This document shows positions 21,689 to 28,402 of a stretch of 34,254 nucleotides of DNA, one piece after another. The notes below the pieces were generated by a model. That model searched no databases and was not told the DNA's origin. It saw only the letters and a program-made list of their open reading frames with translations. Position 1 is the first letter of the stretch. Each line of letters starts with the position of its first letter. The position numbers were made by a program, and so were the translations under genes. The DNA is taken from the IMG/VR virus record IMGVR_UViG_2529292908_000011; one strand, 5' to 3'. Origin of the DNA: a virus. Lineage: Duplodnaviria; Heunggongvirae; Uroviricota; Caudoviricetes.

Positions 21689-21923
21689 AGATAAGAATAC
21701 GTCTTATTCTAACAATGCCACCCTGTCGGTCATCAATCCTCTGCTTAATGGCAACGACAATTATCCGACTTAAATCACAAATCAGACACATGACATAACA
21801 GAGCTTGCGAGGTAACACATCGTCCGGTTTCTTCCACCATCGCACCGGACCAGCGACCATGAGGGGACAACGCCGCGCTCCGTTAACGCGGTAACCAGAA
21901 CAGGTCGAAGTAATACTCGCACG

Positions 21924-22202
21924 TTACCTCCAGATGCGTTGCTGGAATGTGCGGGACGGACGCGGTGAGCGTTCGGAGTAAGGAAGCCTGACGGAGATTA
22001 TCCAGTGACGATAATCGAGGCTGAGGGCTTTCTTAATCTCGTATCCGTGTCTGCGGTAGCACTGAATTAGCCACTCGGCCTGTTCTTCAGTGCATGGGGG
22101 ATGCTGGAACCAGTCAGATTTGAAAGTGCGGGAACGCCGCCCGTGCCTGCTGGCAAAGACGGCAGAATCATCAGAATTGTGTAATTTGGTATCGTGCACC
22201 AT
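21924..22202 (-). CDS. hypothetical small protein
   Basis: Internal ATG (MVHDTKLHNSDD...) of ORF 21924..22331, chosen because the longer ORF would run through the hok terminator hairpin. Weak support. Confidence 0.25.
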   Translation of the reverse strand: MVHDTKLHNSDDSAVFASRHGRRSRTFKSDWFQHPPCTEEQAEWLIQCYRRHGYEIKKALSLDYRHWIISVRLPYSERSPRPSRTFQQRIWR

Positions 22203-22273
22203 CGGTTGTCTCTGCTGGCGCAGCAGGTGCCAGTTGTTCAGGCTGGCGTGCGAATTGTAAACCAGAATGCCAG

Positions 22274-22301
22274 GAAAAAACAAAACCCGCCGAAGCGGGT
22301 T
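22274..22301 (-). terminator. intrinsic terminator of the hok transcript
   Basis: Minus-strand AACCCGC-ttcg-GCGGGTT followed by TTTGTTTTTTCC, ~70 nt downstream of the hok stop. Confidence 0.5.
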
Positions 22302-22369
22302 ACGTGCGGGTGCGTTGAGGATGCCTGACACATCAGAGGTGGCGAGGGATTTCTCCCTCGCCGGGTCTC

Positions 22370-22525
22370 TTACTCCTCAGGTTCGTAAACTGTGAAGACA
22401 GCGACCTCCGTCTGGCCGGTTCGGATTCGTACCTCGCAGAGGTCTTTCCTCGTTACCAGTGCCGTCACTATGACGGTTAAACAGATGACGATCAGGGCGA
22501 TTAACATCGCCTTTTGCTGCTTCAT
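22370..22525 (-). CDS. hokD: Hok/Gef-family type I toxin (HokD/RelF-like)
   Basis: Internal Met of ORF 22370..22582 gives MKQQKAMLIALIVICLTVIVTALVTRKDLCEVRIRTGQTEVAVFTVYEPEE (51 aa), nearly identical to recalled HokD. Confidence 0.85.
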   Translation of the reverse strand: MKQQKAMLIALIVICLTVIVTALVTRKDLCEVRIRTGQTEVAVFTVYEPEE

Positions 22526-22582
22526 AGCCTGCTTCTCCTTGCCTTTCGGCACGTAAGAGGCTAACCTAGATTTGCCGTTCAT
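22370..22582 (-). CDS. mok-like overlapping reading frame (in-frame N-terminal extension of hok)
   Basis: The 70-aa ORF MNGKSRLASYVPKGKEKQA... extends the hok frame upstream, as in hok/mok/sok loci. Confidence 0.35.
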   Translation of the reverse strand: MNGKSRLASYVPKGKEKQAMKQQKAMLIALIVICLTVIVTALVTRKDLCEVRIRTGQTEVAVFTVYEPEE

Positions 22583-22816
22583 AGATTGAGCCTCAGATTA
22601 ATGTTAAGCGTCTTGCAGGACGCGTAATGTTAACTGGGGCTTTTCTCTATCTGCCTTTTGGTATTCATGCCTGAGACAGATAGCCTCAAGCACCCGCAGC
22701 AATTCTACTTAACTATCCTTTCCCCGCAAATCGTTTTTATCCCCAGCGACAAATCGAATACACCACCAGCGCCACCGCCATTGCGATCCCTACCGTTGTG
22801 AATGCCTCAGGCCAGG

Positions 22817-23161
22817 TCATCGTAAAACATCCTCTGCGCTTATCAGTCCGTTTCGCTTCAGGTAGTCCATCGCCTTACCCGGCAATTTACAGTCCGGCTT
22901 CGTTTTCCTCAGTTGCCAGGTTAACTGCTTTACCAGCATGGTTAACTCGTCGACCAGACGCTGATGTCCCACTGGTTTGTATTCATGCAATTTACCGGCT
23001 GGCTCTGCTGCCAGCGATGCCAGTGCGATTTCCAGAACAGCAATATCCATCTTATATGTGCGGATGATGTCATGGTCGATTGTGCCCGGTATGCACAGTC
23101 TCTGTGCTTCAATAGTCTCCTCTGCGTGAGCTATTAACTGCTCTCTGGTAAAAGTGGTCAT
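22817..23161 (-). CDS. hypothetical accessory protein (N-terminus paralogous to the 23675..24100 product)
   Basis: 114 aa [20 protein letters not shown]...[10 protein letters not shown]...; shares the MTxxTxEQLI...IAL(T/A)SL(E/A)AEP pattern with the ORF at 23675..24100. Confidence 0.5.
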
Positions 23162-23673
23162 GCCGCGCTTCCTTCTTGCTTATTAACGATTACACCGTCA
23201 TATATTTCATTAAGGTGTCCCCTCAACTCCATGCGCCTTAATGCAGACAACATGTAATCGCATTCAACCTGCTTATTTCCAGTAAATGGCTTATCGTCAG
23301 GATCACCCCAACAGCAATTACCCTTGGGCCACCCATGTACTTTCCGTACTCTTCCGTTAACAACGTGAAGTAATCCCCAGCCAGGTGGTAAATCCTCAAT
23401 TGAAATAATTCCCGGCTCACTAATAAAGAATCTCCAGTCGCCCATGCCAAGAGAGGGATTTTTACGGAAACGCTTTTTTCTATCTGCCAACAAGTCAGCA
23501 CGAGAACACTTCGCCTCTATCAGGCATGATGCTGAATTTCTGAATCCCATAGCATCTGGTTGTTCTCCAGTACTGGTTACAGCAACAAAGCGGTCATGAA
23601 AGCAAACCTTGAACCCGTTGCGCTTAAGGAACCTGTACGCAATCTGACAGAGTTCGCGGTGTGTTAACGCCAT
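23158..23673 (-). CDS. putative PD-(D/E)xK nuclease-fold protein
   Basis: 171 aa with ...[26 protein letters not shown]..., a D...ExK arrangement with typical spacing. Coupled to neighbours by overlapping stop/start. Confidence 0.45.
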
Positions 23674-23674
23674 C

Positions 23675-24100
23675 TCATTCTCCTTTGATGCGAATGTTTA
23701 CAACCTGACAAACCTCTTTGAGTACCCAGTCAACAGCGTCTTTCCACGCTCCAGTCTCAACTGGCGGATTCTCACGTTTTACTTGTTCATAGAAGTGCAC
23801 AGCTTTAACCAGTCCTTCAGGTACTACAGGCACTGGCGGCATGCGATACAATGGAGTAACACAACGCGAAGCCTCATATTTATCTGACGGACGCTGAAAT
23901 ATCTCACCGAACCCATATTTTTCAATATCTCGCAGTTCCTCGTCGTCAGTCCATGCCACCGGTTCTGCTTCCAGCGATGTCAGTGCAATTTTGAATAACT
24001 CACCCTCTACTCGTGCCACGCCTGAATTGGGATGGCATTTCGCAATCGCTATTTTTAATTTGGCTTCTTCGATTAATTGCTCTTTTGTTAATTCAGTCAT
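23675..24100 (-). CDS. hypothetical Ea22-like accessory protein
   Basis: 141 aa. Its C-terminal ...NIRIKGE and 3' DNA (ctcctttgatgcgaatg) are repeated at the end of the 24530..24991 gene. Confidence 0.5.
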   Translation of the reverse strand: MTELTKEQLIEEAKLKIAIAKCHPNSGVARVEGELFKIALTSLEAEPVAWTDDEELRDIEKYGFGEIFQRPSDKYEASRCVTPLYRMPPVPVVPEGLVKAVHFYEQVKRENPPVETGAWKDAVDWVLKEVCQVVNIRIKGE

Positions 24101-24195
24101 TTTTCATTACCGCTCTTTCTGGCGGCCTCCTGATGTTCTGAGGGTGCAGAAATCCCTCCGGCTAAGGATTAAATTTTTAACAGTTCTAAATTTAA

Positions 24196-24552
24196 CTATT
24201 CAGTTCTGGATTTTGTCGCCCTGCGTATCCGCGCTTTCGCGTTACGCTCAATCTGAATTAGCTTTTCTATATTTTTCCGTCTTTCCCGTTCCTCCTGACG
24301 CAATAGCCTTACATCATCTGCCAGTCTGGTTTCTCTTTTCGCCACAGAGAGCATCCAGTCAAATGGCTCCACAACTGCGCCGCAGATTTTACAGCGGACC
24401 TGACGCTCTTTTTCATCAACCCGGACAGAGGCGTGATGGCAGTATGGTCTTTCCGATGGCTCATAAAGAAAATTAACCTGATTACGCGGGTCATCCTCTT
24501 TTACAGGAAATAAAACGATATTGCTTAACTCATCCTCTGGTTTTATTTCCAT
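24196..24552 (-). CDS. hypothetical zinc-ribbon protein with basic coiled-coil C-terminus
   Basis: 118 aa with ...YCHHASVRVDEKERQVRCKICGAVVEPFDW... followed by an R/K/E-rich tail. Confidence 0.5.
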   Translation of the reverse strand: MEIKPEDELSNIVLFPVKEDDPRNQVNFLYEPSERPYCHHASVRVDEKERQVRCKICGAVVEPFDWMLSVAKRETRLADDVRLLRQEERERRKNIEKLIQIERNAKARIRRATKSRTE

Positions 24553-24991
24553 GCTCCTCTCCTTTGATGCGAATGCCAGCGACGCGTAATGCGTGTTCTA
24601 GGTCAATCAGGTAAAGCCAACTGCCATTTTCTTTAGGTATCATGACATGTCGCTCATCTGCATTTATCGGGTGTCCATATCGAAGGTCGTAGCGAGTCGG
24701 TAATTGAACTTCCCGCGCTTCCAGTGCAGCAATACGCTTGCTCCCATCAGAGATAACGCCTTCGTAATACTCACGCTGCTCGTTGAGTTGTGATTTTGCT
24801 TCTTCCAGTCCATCCAGCAAATCAGCGATAATATCCGCTTCCCGATGACGGATGTGACGCTTAAACGCAGCAAGAGCCGCATCACAATCCCGTTCAGCAT
24901 TTGGGCTGTCCGGGATAGCCTGATACCACGCCAGCGTCGACTGATAGTTTTGTGCTGCCTCACGAAGCGCCTCATAGTTAACCTCTCTCAT
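24530..24991 (-). CDS. hypothetical Ea22-like accessory protein
   Basis: 153 aa, AGGAGG Shine-Dalgarno, ATG overlaps the upstream stop (ATGA); C-terminal ...GIRIKGE shared with the 23675..24100 product. Confidence 0.5.
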   Translation of the reverse strand: MREVNYEALREAAQNYQSTLAWYQAIPDSPNAERDCDAALAAFKRHIRHREADIIADLLDGLEEAKSQLNEQREYYEGVISDGSKRIAALEAREVQLPTRYDLRYGHPINADERHVMIPKENGSWLYLIDLEHALRVAGIRIKGEEHGNKTRG

Positions 24992-25249
24992 TGAGCCACC
25001 TCCTGATAAATCACCGCATGCCCCAGTTTCTCCGCCAGTGCCAGCTCTGCCTTAGCGCCCGCTGACCGCTGCCAGCCATTCAGCATGTAAATCGCATCCA
25101 CACAACGAATCATTGCCATGCAAATATCCATGTAGTGCGGCTGTGTCAGCCCGTCCGGAAGTACTGCCGGGTTTAAGACGGTATGCCCTTCCCGTTTCAG
25201 TTCCTCTTACGGATACGCTCAAGAACACCACCTGTCGCGATATTTTTCA
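24988..25249 (-). pseudogene. DUF4406-like small protein remnant, frameshifted
   Basis: Minus strand reads MKNIATGGVLERIRKRN then stop; the next frame continues ...ELKREGHTVLNPAVLPDGLTQPHYMDICMAMIRCVDAIYMLNGWQRSAGAKAELALAEKLGHAVIYQEVAQ. Family name recalled from motif only. Confidence 0.4.
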
Positions 25250-25256
25250 TGGCCCG

Positions 25257-26222
25257 TTACCCCCTGAACCCCGGCGGAATTTCGGTATCCGGCTCAGAAA
25301 TATGATTCACGCAACGCTGTACAGACGAACGCCCCAGGCGGATAACCAGTTCATCCCATTTTTCGCGAAGCTTTGACGGACTCATGATATTTTTTACCCA
25401 GAATGGATCCCGCTGCGCCCGACCAAACATTTCACAAATTTGTCTGTGAGTTCTGCCATCCAGCATCCGCATTGTGCGCACGTCGTTGGCCCATGCGGTC
25501 CAGTTGGGTTCTTTCGGTCGCGAAATCTCGCCATCATCGCTGGCGGCCTGCTCGTAAAGACTCACGATTCGTCCCCAGATCCACTGCGCACACGCCAAAT
25601 CTTCCTGGTTGCCCCACTGGCGTTTTTTTGCACTGAACACAACCGCGTCAGGGTGTCGGGTTAAAAAATCCTGTTCAACCGTCTGCGGGTCCGGTTGCGA
25701 AGCTTCCGGACGAGAAGTGTTTTTATTCTCTGTAGTAATCTCTGTTGTATTCTCTGTAAGATCATCAGGCCATTTTGACCCGATGACATTGAGTCGTTTT
25801 GAACCAATGGAACGTGCCATTTTGGCCCCTTCCATCGTGTCATTCTGACCTGATGGAGCAGCGCATTTTGACCTGATGGATTCGCTCACTTTGCCACCAT
25901 TTAAAAGCTCGCTCTCGTAATTAATCGTGTAAAAATTAGTCATATCACGCTTTGATTTATTGAGCTTTTCGCAACGCAAAAGCCCCAGCGTTTTCAGACT
26001 TGCAAATGCGCGTTTTAACGTTGACTCTGACCAGAACGGGAACTGCTCCAGCCATTGTTCTGTTGTGTTATAAATCCAGCGAACACCATCACATTCCATG
26101 CCGGAACCGGTATCTCTCAACCAGTAATGCAACTGCTGCAACACGATGGCTTCGTTCAGACCAATTTTCATCGCCAGCTGCGTGTTTATAACCAGCGGAC
26201 GTTCAGCAAAAAGGAGCTTCAT
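25257..26222 (-). CDS. replication initiation protein (phage replisome-organizer N-terminal domain)
   Basis: ATG at 26222 chosen (the longer ORF starts with GTG at 26279). N-terminus MKLLFAERPLVINTQLAMKIGLNEAIVLQQLHYWL...; C-terminal ...WGNQEDLACAQWIWGRIVSLYEQ.... Confidence 0.65.
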   Translation of the reverse strand: MKLLFAERPLVINTQLAMKIGLNEAIVLQQLHYWLRDTGSGMECDGVRWIYNTTEQWLEQFPFWSESTLKRAFASLKTLGLLRCEKLNKSKRDMTNFYTINYESELLNGGKVSESIRSKCAAPSGQNDTMEGAKMARSIGSKRLNVIGSKWPDDLTENTTEITTENKNTSRPEASQPDPQTVEQDFLTRHPDAVVFSAKKRQWGNQEDLACAQWIWGRIVSLYEQAASDDGEISRPKEPNWTAWANDVRTMRMLDGRTHRQICEMFGRAQRDPFWVKNIMSPSKLREKWDELVIRLGRSSVQRCVNHISEPDTEIPPGFRG

Positions 26223-26241
26223 CCCCCCCCAGAACACGTTA

Positions 26242-26667
26242 TCAATGCGCCACCACGGCATTTCCCGCCGGACAACCACGATTCATCTGATCGAACAACA
26301 CGATCGCTGCCGCAACAAACTCATCGATATCTTTCACCAGGCGCTCCCGTCGCTCGACAAGCTCCCGGTGATATTCCGAACTGTGGCTGCGCATTCGGGC
26401 CACCAGTGGAGGCGGCATTGCTTTTTCGATCGCCGGTAACAACGCCTGAATTTTTTTAACCGCATCAGGGGTGTCTTTTTCTACCCAGCGGAAAATTTTC
26501 TGGGTATTACGAGACAGGGCTTCCGGATGGCTGTCGTCATACAGTTCAGGAAACGTCATACCCAACTCAAAATAAGCCTGGGTTATTCCAGCTACTGGAA
26601 CTTTTTCGCCATCAGGACGCGCCCAGGCATTCATCGCCATGCGGATGTGTTCATGCTTGATTTTCAT
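26242..26667 (-). CDS. YdaT-like protein
   Basis: 141 aa starting MKIKHEHIRMAMNAWARPDGEK..., positioned after the cro-like gene as in Rac ydaS-ydaT. Confidence 0.6.
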   Translation of the reverse strand: MKIKHEHIRMAMNAWARPDGEKVPVAGITQAYFELGMTFPELYDDSHPEALSRNTQKIFRWVEKDTPDAVKKIQALLPAIEKAMPPPLVARMRSHSSEYHRELVERRERLVKDIDEFVAAAIVLFDQMNRGCPAGNAVVAH

Positions 26668-26923
26668 GAATCAACTCCGGTGCATTTGATGTGTTAACCT
26701 TGAATCCAACAGGTAAACCGTCGGTTGGGTTAGGATAAATATCAGGGCGAATTTCATGCGGGGTAACTTCCCACTTCATTAGCTGACATAACGGAATTAC
26801 CTGCTTTGGGGGAACGTCAAAGCTAAACCATTGCCAAACTGTCTGTTGAGCGACCCCCATATAACGACCTATTTCAGCTTGAGTGTATTTCTGCCTAATT
26901 TTTTCGCGAGTGCTATCTAGCAT
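26651..26923 (-). CDS. Cro/YdaS-like HTH regulator, divergent from the repressor
   Basis: 90 aa with HTH ...YTQAEIGRYMGVAQQTVWQWF...; strong Shine-Dalgarno AGAGGAG. Confidence 0.65.
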   Translation of the reverse strand: MLDSTREKIRQKYTQAEIGRYMGVAQQTVWQWFSFDVPPKQVIPLCQLMKWEVTPHEIRPDIYPNPTDGLPVGFKVNTSNAPELIHENQA

Positions 26924-26962
26924 TTTGCTCTCCTCTAAAAAACTATAAGCAAAGCCTACAAT

Positions 26963-26991
26963 AAAAAACTGTACACAATCAACAGTTTTTT
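26963..26991. promoter_or_regulatory. operator-like palindrome AAAAAACTGT-N9-ACAGTTTTTT in the divergent repressor/cro-like intergenic region
   Basis: Perfect 10-bp inverted repeat read directly; same core as the element at 27993-28029. Confidence 0.5.
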
Positions 26992-27032
26992 ATTGTGATG
27001 CTTTTAACAGTATTTACCTGTAAAATTGAATA

Positions 27033-27434
27033 ATGATGAACGCCCTAGAAGTATCTATGTACAGAATCAGCAAGCTTCTTCAGGAAACTGGATGGAGCCA
27101 GGCTGAGCTTGCCCGTAGAATTGGTGTGACACAACAAACTGTTCAACAATGGGTCAGCGGTAAGGCTACACCTAAAGCCTCAAGTTTGGATAAACTGGTT
27201 GAGGTTACAGGGCATCCATTGCATTGGTTTTTATTGCCTCCTGAAGAGGGGGAGCAAATTTTCACCCCTGACACGATGAAAATTGGTCCTCGTCAACGCG
27301 AACTGCTCCAGGCTTTTAGTGCGTTTCCAGAGGAAGACCAAGAAAAAATGCTTCAAGAAATCAAAGACAAGAAAAAATCAATGGAAGAAACCATTGCCCG
27401 GTGGTTGGCGGCACAAAAAAGCCGCCGGGCGTGA
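27033..27434 (+). CDS. XRE-family prophage repressor (DicA/RacR-like)
   Basis: 133 aa with HTH ...ISKLLQETGWSQAELARRIGVTQQTVQQWVSG... and a C-terminal dimerisation-like region. No Shine-Dalgarno; TAAAAT -10 ends 7 nt before the ATG, suggesting a leaderless mRNA. Start could be M9. Confidence 0.8.
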   Translation: MMNALEVSMYRISKLLQETGWSQAELARRIGVTQQTVQQWVSGKATPKASSLDKLVEVTGHPLHWFLLPPEEGEQIFTPDTMKIGPRQRELLQAFSAFPEEDQEKMLQEIKDKKKSMEETIARWLAAQKSRRA

Positions 27435-27461
27435 CCACAGTACAAGAAGAGGAGTTATGCC

Positions 27462-27653
27462 ATGAGTACAGCCCTTTCTCCGATAGTTTCAGAATTCGAA
27501 ACTACCGAACAAGAAAACAGTTACAACGAATGGTTACGCGCTAAAGTGGCGTCAAGCCTTGCTGACCCTCGTCCCTCAATTCCACATGATGAGGTAATGG
27601 CTGAAATGGAGAATCTTATTGCTCAAATTGCTGTAACTAACAGGAGCGAGTAA
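27462..27653 (+). CDS. type II antitoxin (partner of the ParE-family toxin)
   Basis: 63-aa acidic ORF MSTALSPIVSEFETTEQENSYNEWLRAKV... whose stop overlaps the toxin ATG by 1 nt. Confidence 0.6.
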   Translation: MSTALSPIVSEFETTEQENSYNEWLRAKVASSLADPRPSIPHDEVMAEMENLIAQIAVTNRSE

Positions 27654-27940
27654 TGTTACCCATTTTGTGGCTACCATCTGCTCGCGATGATTTGCGTCAG
27701 ATCGTAGCCTATATTGCTAAGGAAAATATTCCTGCAGCACGCAGACTAAAAATACGGATTGAAACGTCTGTTTTAGCCCTCTCTGAGCATCCATATCTAT
27801 ATCCGCCAAGTGATCGAGTATCCGGTTTGCGGGAAATTGTGGTTCACCCTAATTATATCGTTTTGTACCGAGTAGCAGCTTCAAGCATTGAAATTGCAAA
27901 TATTGTGCATGCCCGCCGACAATTTCCCTTCCCTATCTGA
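27653..27940 (+). CDS. ParE/RelE-family type II toxin
   Basis: 95 aa MLPILWLPSARDDLRQIVAYIAKENIPAARRLKIRIETSVLALSEHPYLYPPSDRVSGLREIVVHPNYIVLYRV...IANIVHARRQ, typical ParE fold signature. Confidence 0.8.
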   Translation: MLPILWLPSARDDLRQIVAYIAKENIPAARRLKIRIETSVLALSEHPYLYPPSDRVSGLREIVVHPNYIVLYRVAASSIEIANIVHARRQFPFPI

Positions 27941-27956
27941 ACTGAACAATTTTCAC

Positions 27957-27981
27957 ACTCCCTCATTCGAGGGAGTTTTTT
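27957..27981 (+). terminator. intrinsic terminator ending the repressor-antitoxin-toxin operon
   Basis: CTCCCTC-attc-GAGGGAG followed by TTTTTTT. Confidence 0.65.
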
Positions 27982-27992
27982 TGCCCAATACA

Positions 27993-28035
27993 ACAATTAA
28001 AAACTGTTGACACAAAACAGTTTTTAATTGTAGAT
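27993..28035 (+). promoter_or_regulatory. operator palindrome CAATTAAAAACTGT-N9-ACAGTTTTTAATTG overlapping a candidate promoter (-35 TTGACA at 28006-28011, -10 TAGATT at 28030-28035) for the ydfA-dicB operon
   Basis: Perfect 14-bp inverted repeat; shares the AAAACTGT-N9-ACAGTTTT core with 26963-26991. Confidence 0.5.
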
Positions 28036-28215
28036 TATTTCCACTACCCCACCCCGCCCCACAGAACGCAGGGAAATACTTCGAGTTACCCGGCAGTGGT
28101 CAGGGGTTAAGTAGCCAGCCCGAGGCGTAAGAACATGACGGCAGGGTTCAACTTTAATAACTATGCAGCAGGTTTTTGTTCCGCTACCCCGGCGTTAAGG
28201 GGAAATGATGTCAGC

Positions 28216-28371
28216 ATGGATACTATCGTTCTTGGCAACAGCGAATCTCTGGTATGTGGCGTGTTCCCCAACCAGGACGGTACGTTCACCGCGATGACGT
28301 ATACCAAAAGCAAAACGTTTAAAACCGAAAATGGTGCCCGTCGCTGGCTGGAAAGAAACTCAGGTGAGTGA
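28216..28371 (+). CDS. ydfA: YdfA-like DUF1391 small protein
   Basis: Internal ATG giving 51 aa MDTIVLGNSESLVCGVFPNQDGTFTAMTYTKSKTFKTENGARRWLERNSGE; length and context match Qin ydfA as recalled. Confidence 0.6.
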   Translation: MDTIVLGNSESLVCGVFPNQDGTFTAMTYTKSKTFKTENGARRWLERNSGE

Positions 28372-28402
28372 TATGGATTTCGACACAATCATGGAAAAGG
28401 CT

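Follow-up and report, generated by a model that had tools for sequence, protein, structure and literature searches.

What is a ParE-family toxin-antitoxin (TA) pair doing directly behind a phage repressor gene, and are the two similar palindromes that bracket these genes the operators of that repressor? The question is raised by a 34,254-nucleotide (nt) stretch of tailed-phage DNA (IMG/VR virus record IMGVR_UViG_2529292908_000011), hereafter the window, for which a preliminary description made from sequence alone had proposed a repressor co-oriented with a TA pair in the position that rexAB holds in lambda. We found that this region holds the on/off controls of a lambda-like Escherichia coli prophage, with a ParE TA pair behind the repressor gene. 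With high confidence, we identify it as the immunity (lysis/lysogeny) switch of a Qin/Sp4-type lambdoid prophage and as an allele of the paaR-paaA-parE three-component module of the E. coli O157:H7 prophage that we take to be CP-933M/Sp4. The sequence supports the first reading, that of a CI-like repressor probably co-transcribed with a ParE TA pair at the rexAB position, with similar putative operators on the PR and PL promoter sides. The arrangement is already known, and what we describe is the rediscovery of a published system, in the form of a close allele of paaR-paaA-parE from E. coli O157:H7. Likewise, the analogy with lambda cI-rexAB is sound but already in print for paaR2-paaA2-parE2 of prophage CP-933P (Jurenas 2021, PMC8630535; PMC9986795). 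For the allele in the window, the findings established here concern sequence homology, the positions of elements and their statistics, and conservation across alleles, while operon structure, promoter repression (PR, PRM and PL), translation without a leader, a bistable switch and the stabilisation of a plasmid have been shown for the CP-933P homologue only.

The core of the locus consists of three co-oriented genes and a terminator:

27033-27434, + strand: immunity repressor gene (label PaaR1-type; CP-933M/Sp4 type, DicA-like), 133 amino acids (aa), N-terminal helix-turn-helix (HTH) and conserved C-terminal domain
27462-27653, + strand: paaA-family antitoxin gene, 63 aa, Pfam PaaA2 (PF21217) 1.1e-21, solved PaaA2 structure 3zbe 1.5e-22
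27653-27940, + strand: parE-family toxin gene, 95 aa, Pfam ParE_toxin (PF05016) 6.6e-16 over residues 4-91 of 95
27957-27983, + strand: intrinsic terminator closing the repressor-TA operon, an 8-bp G+C-rich stem (27957-27976) followed by seven T residues (T7)

These are by sequence the parts of a PaaR-PaaA-ParE system: a ParE toxin, a PaaA antitoxin just upstream and, upstream of it, a co-oriented PaaR-related HTH regulator. The three genes, the 27-nt gap between the repressor and antitoxin genes, and the 1-nt overlap between the paaA stop and the parE start (TAATG) all lie exactly where they had been described. The ParE-like nature of the 95-aa protein, which had been proposed from its sequence, was borne out by the homology search, where its top match among solved structures was E. 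coli O157 ParE2 (5cw7_B, 1.2e-37). As for the antitoxin, PF21217, a "stability determinant" family, is its sole Pfam match, and it has no DNA-binding domain. In the O157 homologues, the toxicity of ParE, its neutralisation by the cognate PaaA and the lability of the antitoxin are known (PMC8630535, PMC4803016).

The repressor matches HTH_3 in Pfam (1.7e-13), and the nearest solved relative of its HTH is the repressor of phage 434 (2.1e-5). This search of solved structures returned generic HTH domains only, with no PaaR2 entry, and the C-terminal domain has no sequence-detectable solved relative. There is no Peptidase_S24 among the 17 Pfam matches, which places the repressor outside the LexA/CI-type SOS-cleavable family, though it is CI-like in role; since the S24 peptidase domain is missing, RecA-mediated cleavage is not expected. 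The protein aligns to the NCBIfam DicA model (NF007257) over residues 11-130 of 133 (52.6 bits, 4.1e-14). Membership in the DicA subfamily was nevertheless rejected, as this score is below the curated cut-off of 101 bits and identity to K-12 DicA is 29%, which makes the repressor a distant relative.

Several observations are consistent with a single transcript carrying the repressor gene, paaA and parE. The 27-nt gap contains an AGGAG ribosome-binding site (27450-27454), a scan of the + strand from 27033 to 27957 for promoters and terminators detected nothing resembling either, and one terminator follows parE. That terminator, already noted behind the toxin gene in the preliminary description, has a folding energy of -13.8 kcal/mol (z = -5.1). 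Could the TA pair be an autonomous two-gene unit with its own promoter, merely adjoining the repressor gene and standing outside the immunity transcript? A TA reporter from CP-933P is expressed in both states of the switch (PMC8630535) and PaaA-ParE is reported to add partial autorepression (PMC4803016), as might be expected of such a unit. However, the 27-nt gap holds a ribosome-binding site and no promoter-like hexamers, the rest of the interval is equally clean, and the homologous paa operon is reported to be co-transcribed from a promoter upstream of paaR (PMC4803016, a review summarising Hallez 2010), which makes an autonomous unit very unlikely.

A second question concerns what the pair does for the prophage. 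The comparison with rexAB, drawn from the start, holds for position, and the same has been said of the CP-933P homologue (PMC9986795), but it does not extend to an exclusion function, since the documented role of that homologue is addiction/stabilisation rather than exclusion (PMC8630535). As a candidate, a RexAB-type exclusion module was rejected: the proteins are PaaA and ParE, with no homology to RexA or RexB, and position alone is common to both. In functional terms, PaaA-ParE could still be a Rex-like superinfection-exclusion or abortive-infection module, instead of or beside an addiction module, in which an incoming phage triggers loss of PaaA and ParE kills or arrests the lysogen. Many TA systems are generally known to act in phage defence. 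The pair is also the constant companion of the repressor, and its rexAB position comes with expression from the lysogenic promoter (PMC9986795). Against this, no PADLOC defence model was matched by either TA protein (the repressor matched generic HTH models only), and plasmid stabilisation through post-segregational killing is the one phenotype documented for the homologue, with no toxin activation in either state (PMC8630535). We therefore judge an exclusion role to be unlikely, and take the TA pair to be, more plausibly, an addiction element within the immunity operon.

We then turn to the palindromes. The motif AAAACTGT-N9-ACAGTTTT occurs exactly twice in the 34 kb, at 26965-26989 and 28000-28024, both times with 0 mismatches, while the chance expectation is 0.12 even with 3 mismatches allowed. 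Two like palindromes had been placed at 26963-26991 and 27993-28029. Both are present and both contain the exact motif, but their ends lie up to 5 nt further out, the full palindromes being 39 nt each (26958-26996, with 15-bp arms, and 27993-28031, with 16-bp arms) with arms that are 100% complementary. The motif proposed as the operator design is clearly non-random, but the functional unit is more probably a 15-bp subsite. From its internal symmetry, each palindrome is probably composed of two 15-bp phage 434-like subsites, ACA(A/G)-N7-(C/T)TGT, rather than being a AAAACTGT-N9-ACAGTTTT unit. The predicted subsites, in the right operator (OR) and the left operator (OL), are unstranded and located as follows:

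26958-26972: subsite OR1, ACAATAAAAAACTGT, in the PR spacer, invariant in four alleles
26982-26996: subsite OR2, ACAGTTTTTTATTGT, upstream of both -35 regions, its centre 44 nt before the repressor ATG
27007-27021: candidate subsite OR3, ACAGTATTTACCTGT, in the spacer of the PRM-like promoter, matching ACARN7YTGT, 25 bp from OR2
27993-28007: subsite OL2, ACAATTAAAAACTGT
28017-28031: subsite OL1, ACAGTTTTTAATTGT, in the PL spacer

The general pattern ACARN7YTGT has 7 matches in the window where 2.2 are expected, and five of the seven fall within the immunity region, in which spacing variants of the motif (N6 and N8) have no matches. Subsites are spaced 24-25 bp centre to centre, and the 109-bp intergenic region between the repressor gene and ydaS holds three of them in phase, suggesting a lambda-like layout with OR1/OR2/OR3 and OL1/OL2. 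OR2 and OR3 are likewise invariant in the four alleles compared, in which OR substitutions are confined to positions between or beside the subsites. The Sp4 locus has all five subsites in matching positions, and the OR and OL of the heteroimmune C7, CP-933P, GF60 and Qin have none. The annotated operators of phage 434 read ACA(A/G)-N6-(C/T)TGT with a spacing of 22-23 bp, and 434 OR3 is ACAGTTTTTCTTGT, to be compared with ACAGTTTTTTATTGT at OR2 here. The operator repeat of CP-933P, GTTTAGT, was considered as a window operator and discarded, as it is absent from both OR and OL.

Alternatively, each 39-nt palindrome might be one operator, its half-sites AAAACTGT and ACAGTTTT 9 nt apart and bound by one dimer or tetramer, with one operator per promoter. 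The arms are perfectly symmetric over 15 and 16 bp, the inner motif is identical at both sites, and an unusually long site is conceivable in view of the octamer reported for PaaR2 (PMC8630535). We find this doubtful. With ~14 bp between them, the half-site centres would be out of phase for an HTH dimer, judging from what is generally known of HTH repressors. Every arm is itself a 434-like pseudo-palindrome, the third phased copy at 27007-27021 reproduces the arm motif and not the whole palindrome, and other, heteroimmune types of the family (C7 and Qin) use tandem palindromes of ~15-18 bp that are common to their OR and OL. Moreover, the Sp4 repressor, which has an identical recognition helix, meets N9 at OR but N10 at OL. 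Since the gap between OL1 and OL2 is 9 nt in the window and 10 nt in Sp4, with both subsites measuring 15 bp in each, a single N9 palindrome bound by one dimer is awkward. We therefore favor paired 15-bp subsites.

The subsites are interlocked with three promoter-like elements:

26953-26982, - strand: predicted PR-like promoter for ydaS-ydaT, -35 TTGATT (26977-26982), 18-nt spacer, -10 TAGGCT (26953-26958)
27021-27026, + strand: PRM-like -10 element TAAAAT, read from the sequence, 6 nt before the repressor ATG
28007-28036, + strand: PL-like promoter TTGACA-18-TAGATT, 10/12 consensus, overlapping OL2/OL1

All three share one layout, in which the spacer is taken up by a subsite whose final T doubles as the first base of the -10 element (OR1/TAGGCT at PR, OL1/TAGATT at PL and OR3/TAAAAT at PRM). 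The overlap of the second palindrome with a TTGACA/TAGATT promoter, as initially described, was recovered with its 18-nt spacer, and the PR-like promoter mirrors this PL-like promoter as an inverted repeat. The PRM-like promoter has a poor -35 region and OR2 centred at -44, which fits an activator-dependent promoter. Because TAAAAT-6 nt-ATG has the geometry of CP-933P (GATAAT-6 nt-ATG), and there is no Shine-Dalgarno sequence before 27033, the repressor mRNA is predicted to be leaderless; leaderless translation of paaR2 has been demonstrated in CP-933P (PMC8630535).

That the palindromes are instead RNA hairpins (a second terminator or an attenuator) or recombination sites is hardly credible. 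They do form stable RNA folds (-16.3 and -17.6 kcal/mol, z of -6.6 and -7.1), and the second was flagged as terminator-like. However, they are A+T-rich, lack a proper U tract and are specific to this repressor type, and the same motif stands on both sides of the repressor gene, as in every lambdoid immunity region. In addition, most of each palindrome is upstream of the transcript start, since its loop carries the -35 hexamer and the -10 element abuts it. An operator function for the palindromes is thus the better account.

The divergent side of the switch completes the picture of a lambdoid immunity region, with a divergent repressor/cro-like pair, a second operator set at a PL-type promoter, and a CII-type gene with its own site:

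26242-26667, - strand: ydaT-like gene (CII analogue), Pfam YdaT_toxin 3.3e-10, solved CP-933P YdaT (8bt1) 3.1e-80
26651-26923, - strand: ydaS-like gene (Cro analogue), divergent from the repressor gene, Pfam YdaS_toxin 1.6e-9
26657-26674, unstranded: YdaT operator OM, TTGATT-N6-AATCAA, at the ydaS/ydaT junction, with motif and position as in the footprinted OM of CP-933P (PMC9986795)

The OM motif has a single match in the window, with 0 mismatches and an expectation of 0.07. The recognition helices of the repressor (GVTQQTVQQW) and of YdaS (GVAQQTVWQW) are closely similar, within HTHs that are 42% identical.

Together, these elements suggest how the switch would work. A non-cleavable CI-like repressor would be made from a weak, leaderless PRM-like promoter, with PaaA and ParE co-transcribed up to the terminator at 27957-27983. 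The repressor would have two 15-bp 434-like subsites to bind at OL and three at OR, the latter centred at -68, -44 and -19 relative to its own start. As OR1 fills the PR spacer and OL1 the PL spacer, both outward early promoters would be shut, silencing ydaS (cro), ydaT (cII) and the replication genes in one direction and ydfA-dicF-dicB in the other. OR2 is at the activator position for PRM, and OR3 would allow negative autoregulation. YdaS, with nearly the same recognition helix, would compete for the repressor sites, and YdaT would act at TTGATT-N6-AATCAA. Oligomers of the repressor probably form through its conserved C-terminal domain, which could also bring together OR and OL, 1,035 bp apart. 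Finally, because labile PaaA would decay faster than ParE, loss of the immunity cassette would be lethal (addiction). In this scheme, we infer the subsite assignment, the PR and PRM hexamers, the looping and the addiction role of this allele.

Several points weigh against this interpretation. The PR-like promoter is poor (7/12 consensus) and was not reported by the promoter scan, and a TATAGT 15 nt further downstream is an alternative PR -10 element. OR3 agrees with OR2 at only 11/15 positions and was recognised after the pattern had been fixed. Conservation of the subsites is weak evidence because allelic diversity is shallow (four alleles), and the operators of CP-933P are organised otherwise (four 18-bp repeats), so that their geometry is not simply transferable. 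In CP-933P, the TA pair is transcribed in both states of the switch and ParE2 activity was detected in neither (PMC8630535). The partial promoter repression reported for PaaA-ParE (PMC4803016), despite the lack of a DNA-binding domain, is left unexplained by our model, and the accessible papers give no measurements on this allele or on the CP-933M copy.

Was the TA pair inserted into a pre-existing immunity operon? This had been suggested from the order of genes in Qin, which was confirmed (dicC and dicA divergent, then ydfA, ydfB, ydfC, dicF and dicB), and the authors of the CP-933P study, where paaR2 sits at the place of cI/dicA, also put forward an insertion of the TA pair into the immunity region (PMC8630535). 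An insertion relative to Qin could not be demonstrated by alignment. The DNA homology of Qin to the window (95-97%) is found from 28178 onward only, so that no insertion junction is definable. In addition, TA pair and repressor C-terminal domain keep company across at least four immunity types. Among 5,426 complete E. coli genomes, the repressor gene is present in 513, at ≥99% identity in 62 and at 95-99% in 446, and the TA pair is present at ≥95% in 63 and at 80-90% in 447. The two sets of identity bands mirror each other, which indicates that repressor and TA pair always occur jointly; a search of the 5,426 genomes for this repressor without the TA pair found no copy.

A BLAST comparison with four heteroimmune loci delimits what is exchanged. 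The ydaT gene is common (82-87%), as is a segment that begins at ~27300-27370, in the repressor's C-terminal domain, and takes in paaA, parE and the ydfA leader (69-79%). The stretch between ~26680-26741 and ~27300-27370, which comprises ydaS, OR and the repressor's DNA-binding domain, is type-specific, and so is a short OL/PL operator segment, the immunity-specific sequence ending near 28047, just beyond the PL -10. The repressor C-terminal domain and paaA-parE are thus common to at least four immunity types. These alignments are what one would expect if the TA pair and PaaR-type repressors have long been associated and DNA-binding specificities have been exchanged around the pair. We also entertain, as a rather unlikely idea, that the ParE module polices the immunity cassette by killing any lysogen in which the cassette has been lost or replaced, so that the survivors are recombinants that keep paaA-parE. 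Such policing would explain both the shared C-terminal domain and TA pair amid swapped DNA-binding domains, cro genes and operators, and the lack of TA-less repressor copies. In a bolder version, the module may also be a Rex-like abortive-infection device against superinfecting phages.

Some prophages have a different regulator content. In strains BA92 (locus L004, 1669-2532) and GF60 (L007, 1568-2372), two tandem regulators precede paaA-parE, namely a PaaR2-like 123-aa protein followed by a 132-153-aa paralogue of the window's repressor, to which the second regulator shows 45% aa identity (BA92) and 68% DNA identity (GF60). OR and OL in these strains contain PaaR2-type repeats and none of the ACA-N9-TGT subsites, leaving the second repressor without an evident target in its own locus. 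It may provide immunity against another phage type, or may be an intermediate in immunity swapping.

Beyond the switch, the PL-like promoter had been said to be aimed at ydfA-dicF-dicB, and the expected genes are indeed downstream, together with an IS1 element in ydfB that the preliminary description did not mention:

28216-28371, + strand: ydfA, first gene of the PL-side operon, DUF1391 7.4e-26
28403-29171, + strand: IS1 inserted in ydfB, in the same orientation as the PL-side operon, with a 9-bp target duplication GAAAAGGCT (span 28394-29180)
29870-29921, + strand: DicF small RNA, Rfam RF00039, 76.7 bits
30096-30284, + strand: dicB cell-division inhibitor gene, its translation agreeing with K-12 DicB at most positions and having the same length (62 aa)

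With PL and ydfA cut off by the IS1 from ydfC, dicF and dicB, the repressor of this strain has probably lost some or all of its control over dicF/dicB. The element itself is 769 bp long and has a single unbroken 232-aa insA-insB open reading frame (28458-29156) that needs no frameshift. A 61-nt probe over its extra base (28657-28717) had no exact match among 60,375 IS1 copies in the 5,426 E. coli genomes, the best match being 98.4% with a 1-nt gap. The extra base is either a private 1-nt insertion, with which transposase would be made constitutively, or else a sequencing error. Ahead of ydfA, the untranslated leader at 28048-28177 (CCCACCCCGCCCCACAGAACGC...) is kept in 3,743 of the 5,426 genomes, across various immunity types and often in several copies per genome.

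Elsewhere in the window, a sok antisense RNA (22520-22695, - strand, Rfam 112 bits) reveals a hok/sok type I toxin-antitoxin locus in the same prophage, and an IS009 RNA is found at the left end (132-330, - strand, Rfam 221 bits). In strain SHP24, the same region is part of an intact-looking prophage integrated beside potC. Only 21894-33195 of the window is collinear with that potC-integrated prophage; the left 21 kb differs, which makes the window a different mosaic. This left part (1-21000) includes a 232-aa open reading frame (7173-7871) resembling the minor tail protein L of phage lambda.

As a discovery, this locus carries little weight, since the architecture, the regulation and the cI-rexAB analogy have been published for the sister locus in O157:H7, and the allele is present in ~9% of complete E. 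coli genomes, where it is annotated routinely. Its practical value is twofold. First, the CP-933M/Sp4 immunity type now has an operator map that can be put to the test, consisting of three subsites at OR and two at OL, all 434-like with one extra central base; we found no characterisation of the CP-933M/Sp4 operators in the accessible literature. Second, it provides a mosaic map of the cassette, distinguishing the exchanged part from the part that is kept (the repressor C-terminal domain and the TA pair).

How does the window compare with known systems? The closest is Sakai prophage Sp4, which we take to be the equivalent of CP-933M. The Sp4-type locus (L002) corresponds to Sakai ECs_1067-1071, with ECs_1069 annotated as "phage repressor protein," and we found no paper on ECs1067-1069. 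It has the same gene order, gene lengths and flanks as the window (ydaT and ydaS on one side, repressor, paaA and parE on the other, then ydfA through dicB). Identities of the window's proteins to this locus and to the CP-933P-type locus (L006) are as follows:

Repressor: 97.7% to the Sp4-type; 34% overall and ~64% over the last 47 aa to the CP-933P-type
YdaS: 97.8% to the Sp4-type; 18% to the CP-933P-type
YdaT: 87.9% to the Sp4-type; 85% to the CP-933P-type
PaaA: 90.5% to the Sp4-type; 65% to the CP-933P-type
ParE: 86.3% to the Sp4-type; 65% to the CP-933P-type

The near-identity of repressor and YdaS and the shared subsite positions indicate that immunity specificity is the same as in Sp4, from which the window differs by its diverged TA allele and by the IS1 that interrupts ydfB. 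These comparisons suggest that the window is of the CP-933M/Sp4 immunity type, with a TA allele that has diverged. The parE gene is a divergence hot spot relative to the O157 Sp4 allele, with 70-82% DNA identity at 27682-27921 against 95-100% over the ydaS-OR-repressor stretch, which points to allele replacement or to diversifying selection that acts on the toxin and on the antitoxin's C-terminal part. The second O157:H7 copy of the system has been named paaR1-paaA1 (PMC3141249) and assigned to CP-933M (PMC8630535, citing Hallez et al. 2010), and the antitoxins of the two paralogous systems of O157:H7 do not cross-neutralise (PMC4803016).

The best-studied relative is the paaR2-paaA2-parE2 locus of CP-933P/Sp12, which is the immunity region of that prophage (Jurenas et al. 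2021, PMC8630535). There, PaaR2, YdaS and YdaT are the analogues of CI, Cro and CII, respectively; the intergenic region between paaR2 and ydaS is bound by both PaaR2 and YdaS, which repress PRM, PR and PL933P; the PL promoter lies past parE2 and carries matching operators; and the switch is bistable, the locus stabilising an unstable plasmid (PMC8630535). In the words of a later study, paaA2-parE2 "replace rexA and rexB," and the YdaT site was defined as TTGATT-N6-AATCAA (Prolic-Kalinsek et al. 2023, PMC9986795). The CP-933P-type locus that we compared has the same gene order as the window, and its PaaR2 begins with MQKKE, as published (PMC8630535). The window shares with it the leaderless PRM geometry, the divergent PR, a terminator followed by OL/PL after parE, the downstream leader and dicB region, and the TTGATT-N6-AATCAA site. 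In contrast, the N-terminal domain of the repressor and YdaS are unrelated in sequence, and the operators are GTTTAGT-type 18-bp repeats in CP-933P but 15-bp ACA-N9-TGT subsites in the window.

As in Qin of K-12, the repressor gene of the window is between a divergent cro-like gene and the ydfA-dicF-dicB operon, but Qin has no TA pair between repressor and ydfA, and its operators are TGTTAG-type. As in lambda, there are passenger genes on the predicted repressor transcript, OL/PL come after a terminator and point the same way, and a cro-like gene is divergent; the tripartite operators, their spacing of 24-25 bp, centres near -19/-44/-68 and a predicted leaderless repressor mRNA also agree with lambda. 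Unlike in lambda, there is no homology to CI, RexA or RexB, the passengers are a ParE TA pair, and only two OL subsites were found. As for phage 434, the window shares with it a related HTH, a recognition helix beginning with TQQ, ACAA/ACAG half-sites and tandem operators, while its subsites are 15 bp instead of 14 bp (one extra central base), its operators are offset by one position relative to PR, and its 133-aa repressor has a PaaR/DicA-type rather than a LexA-like C-terminal domain.

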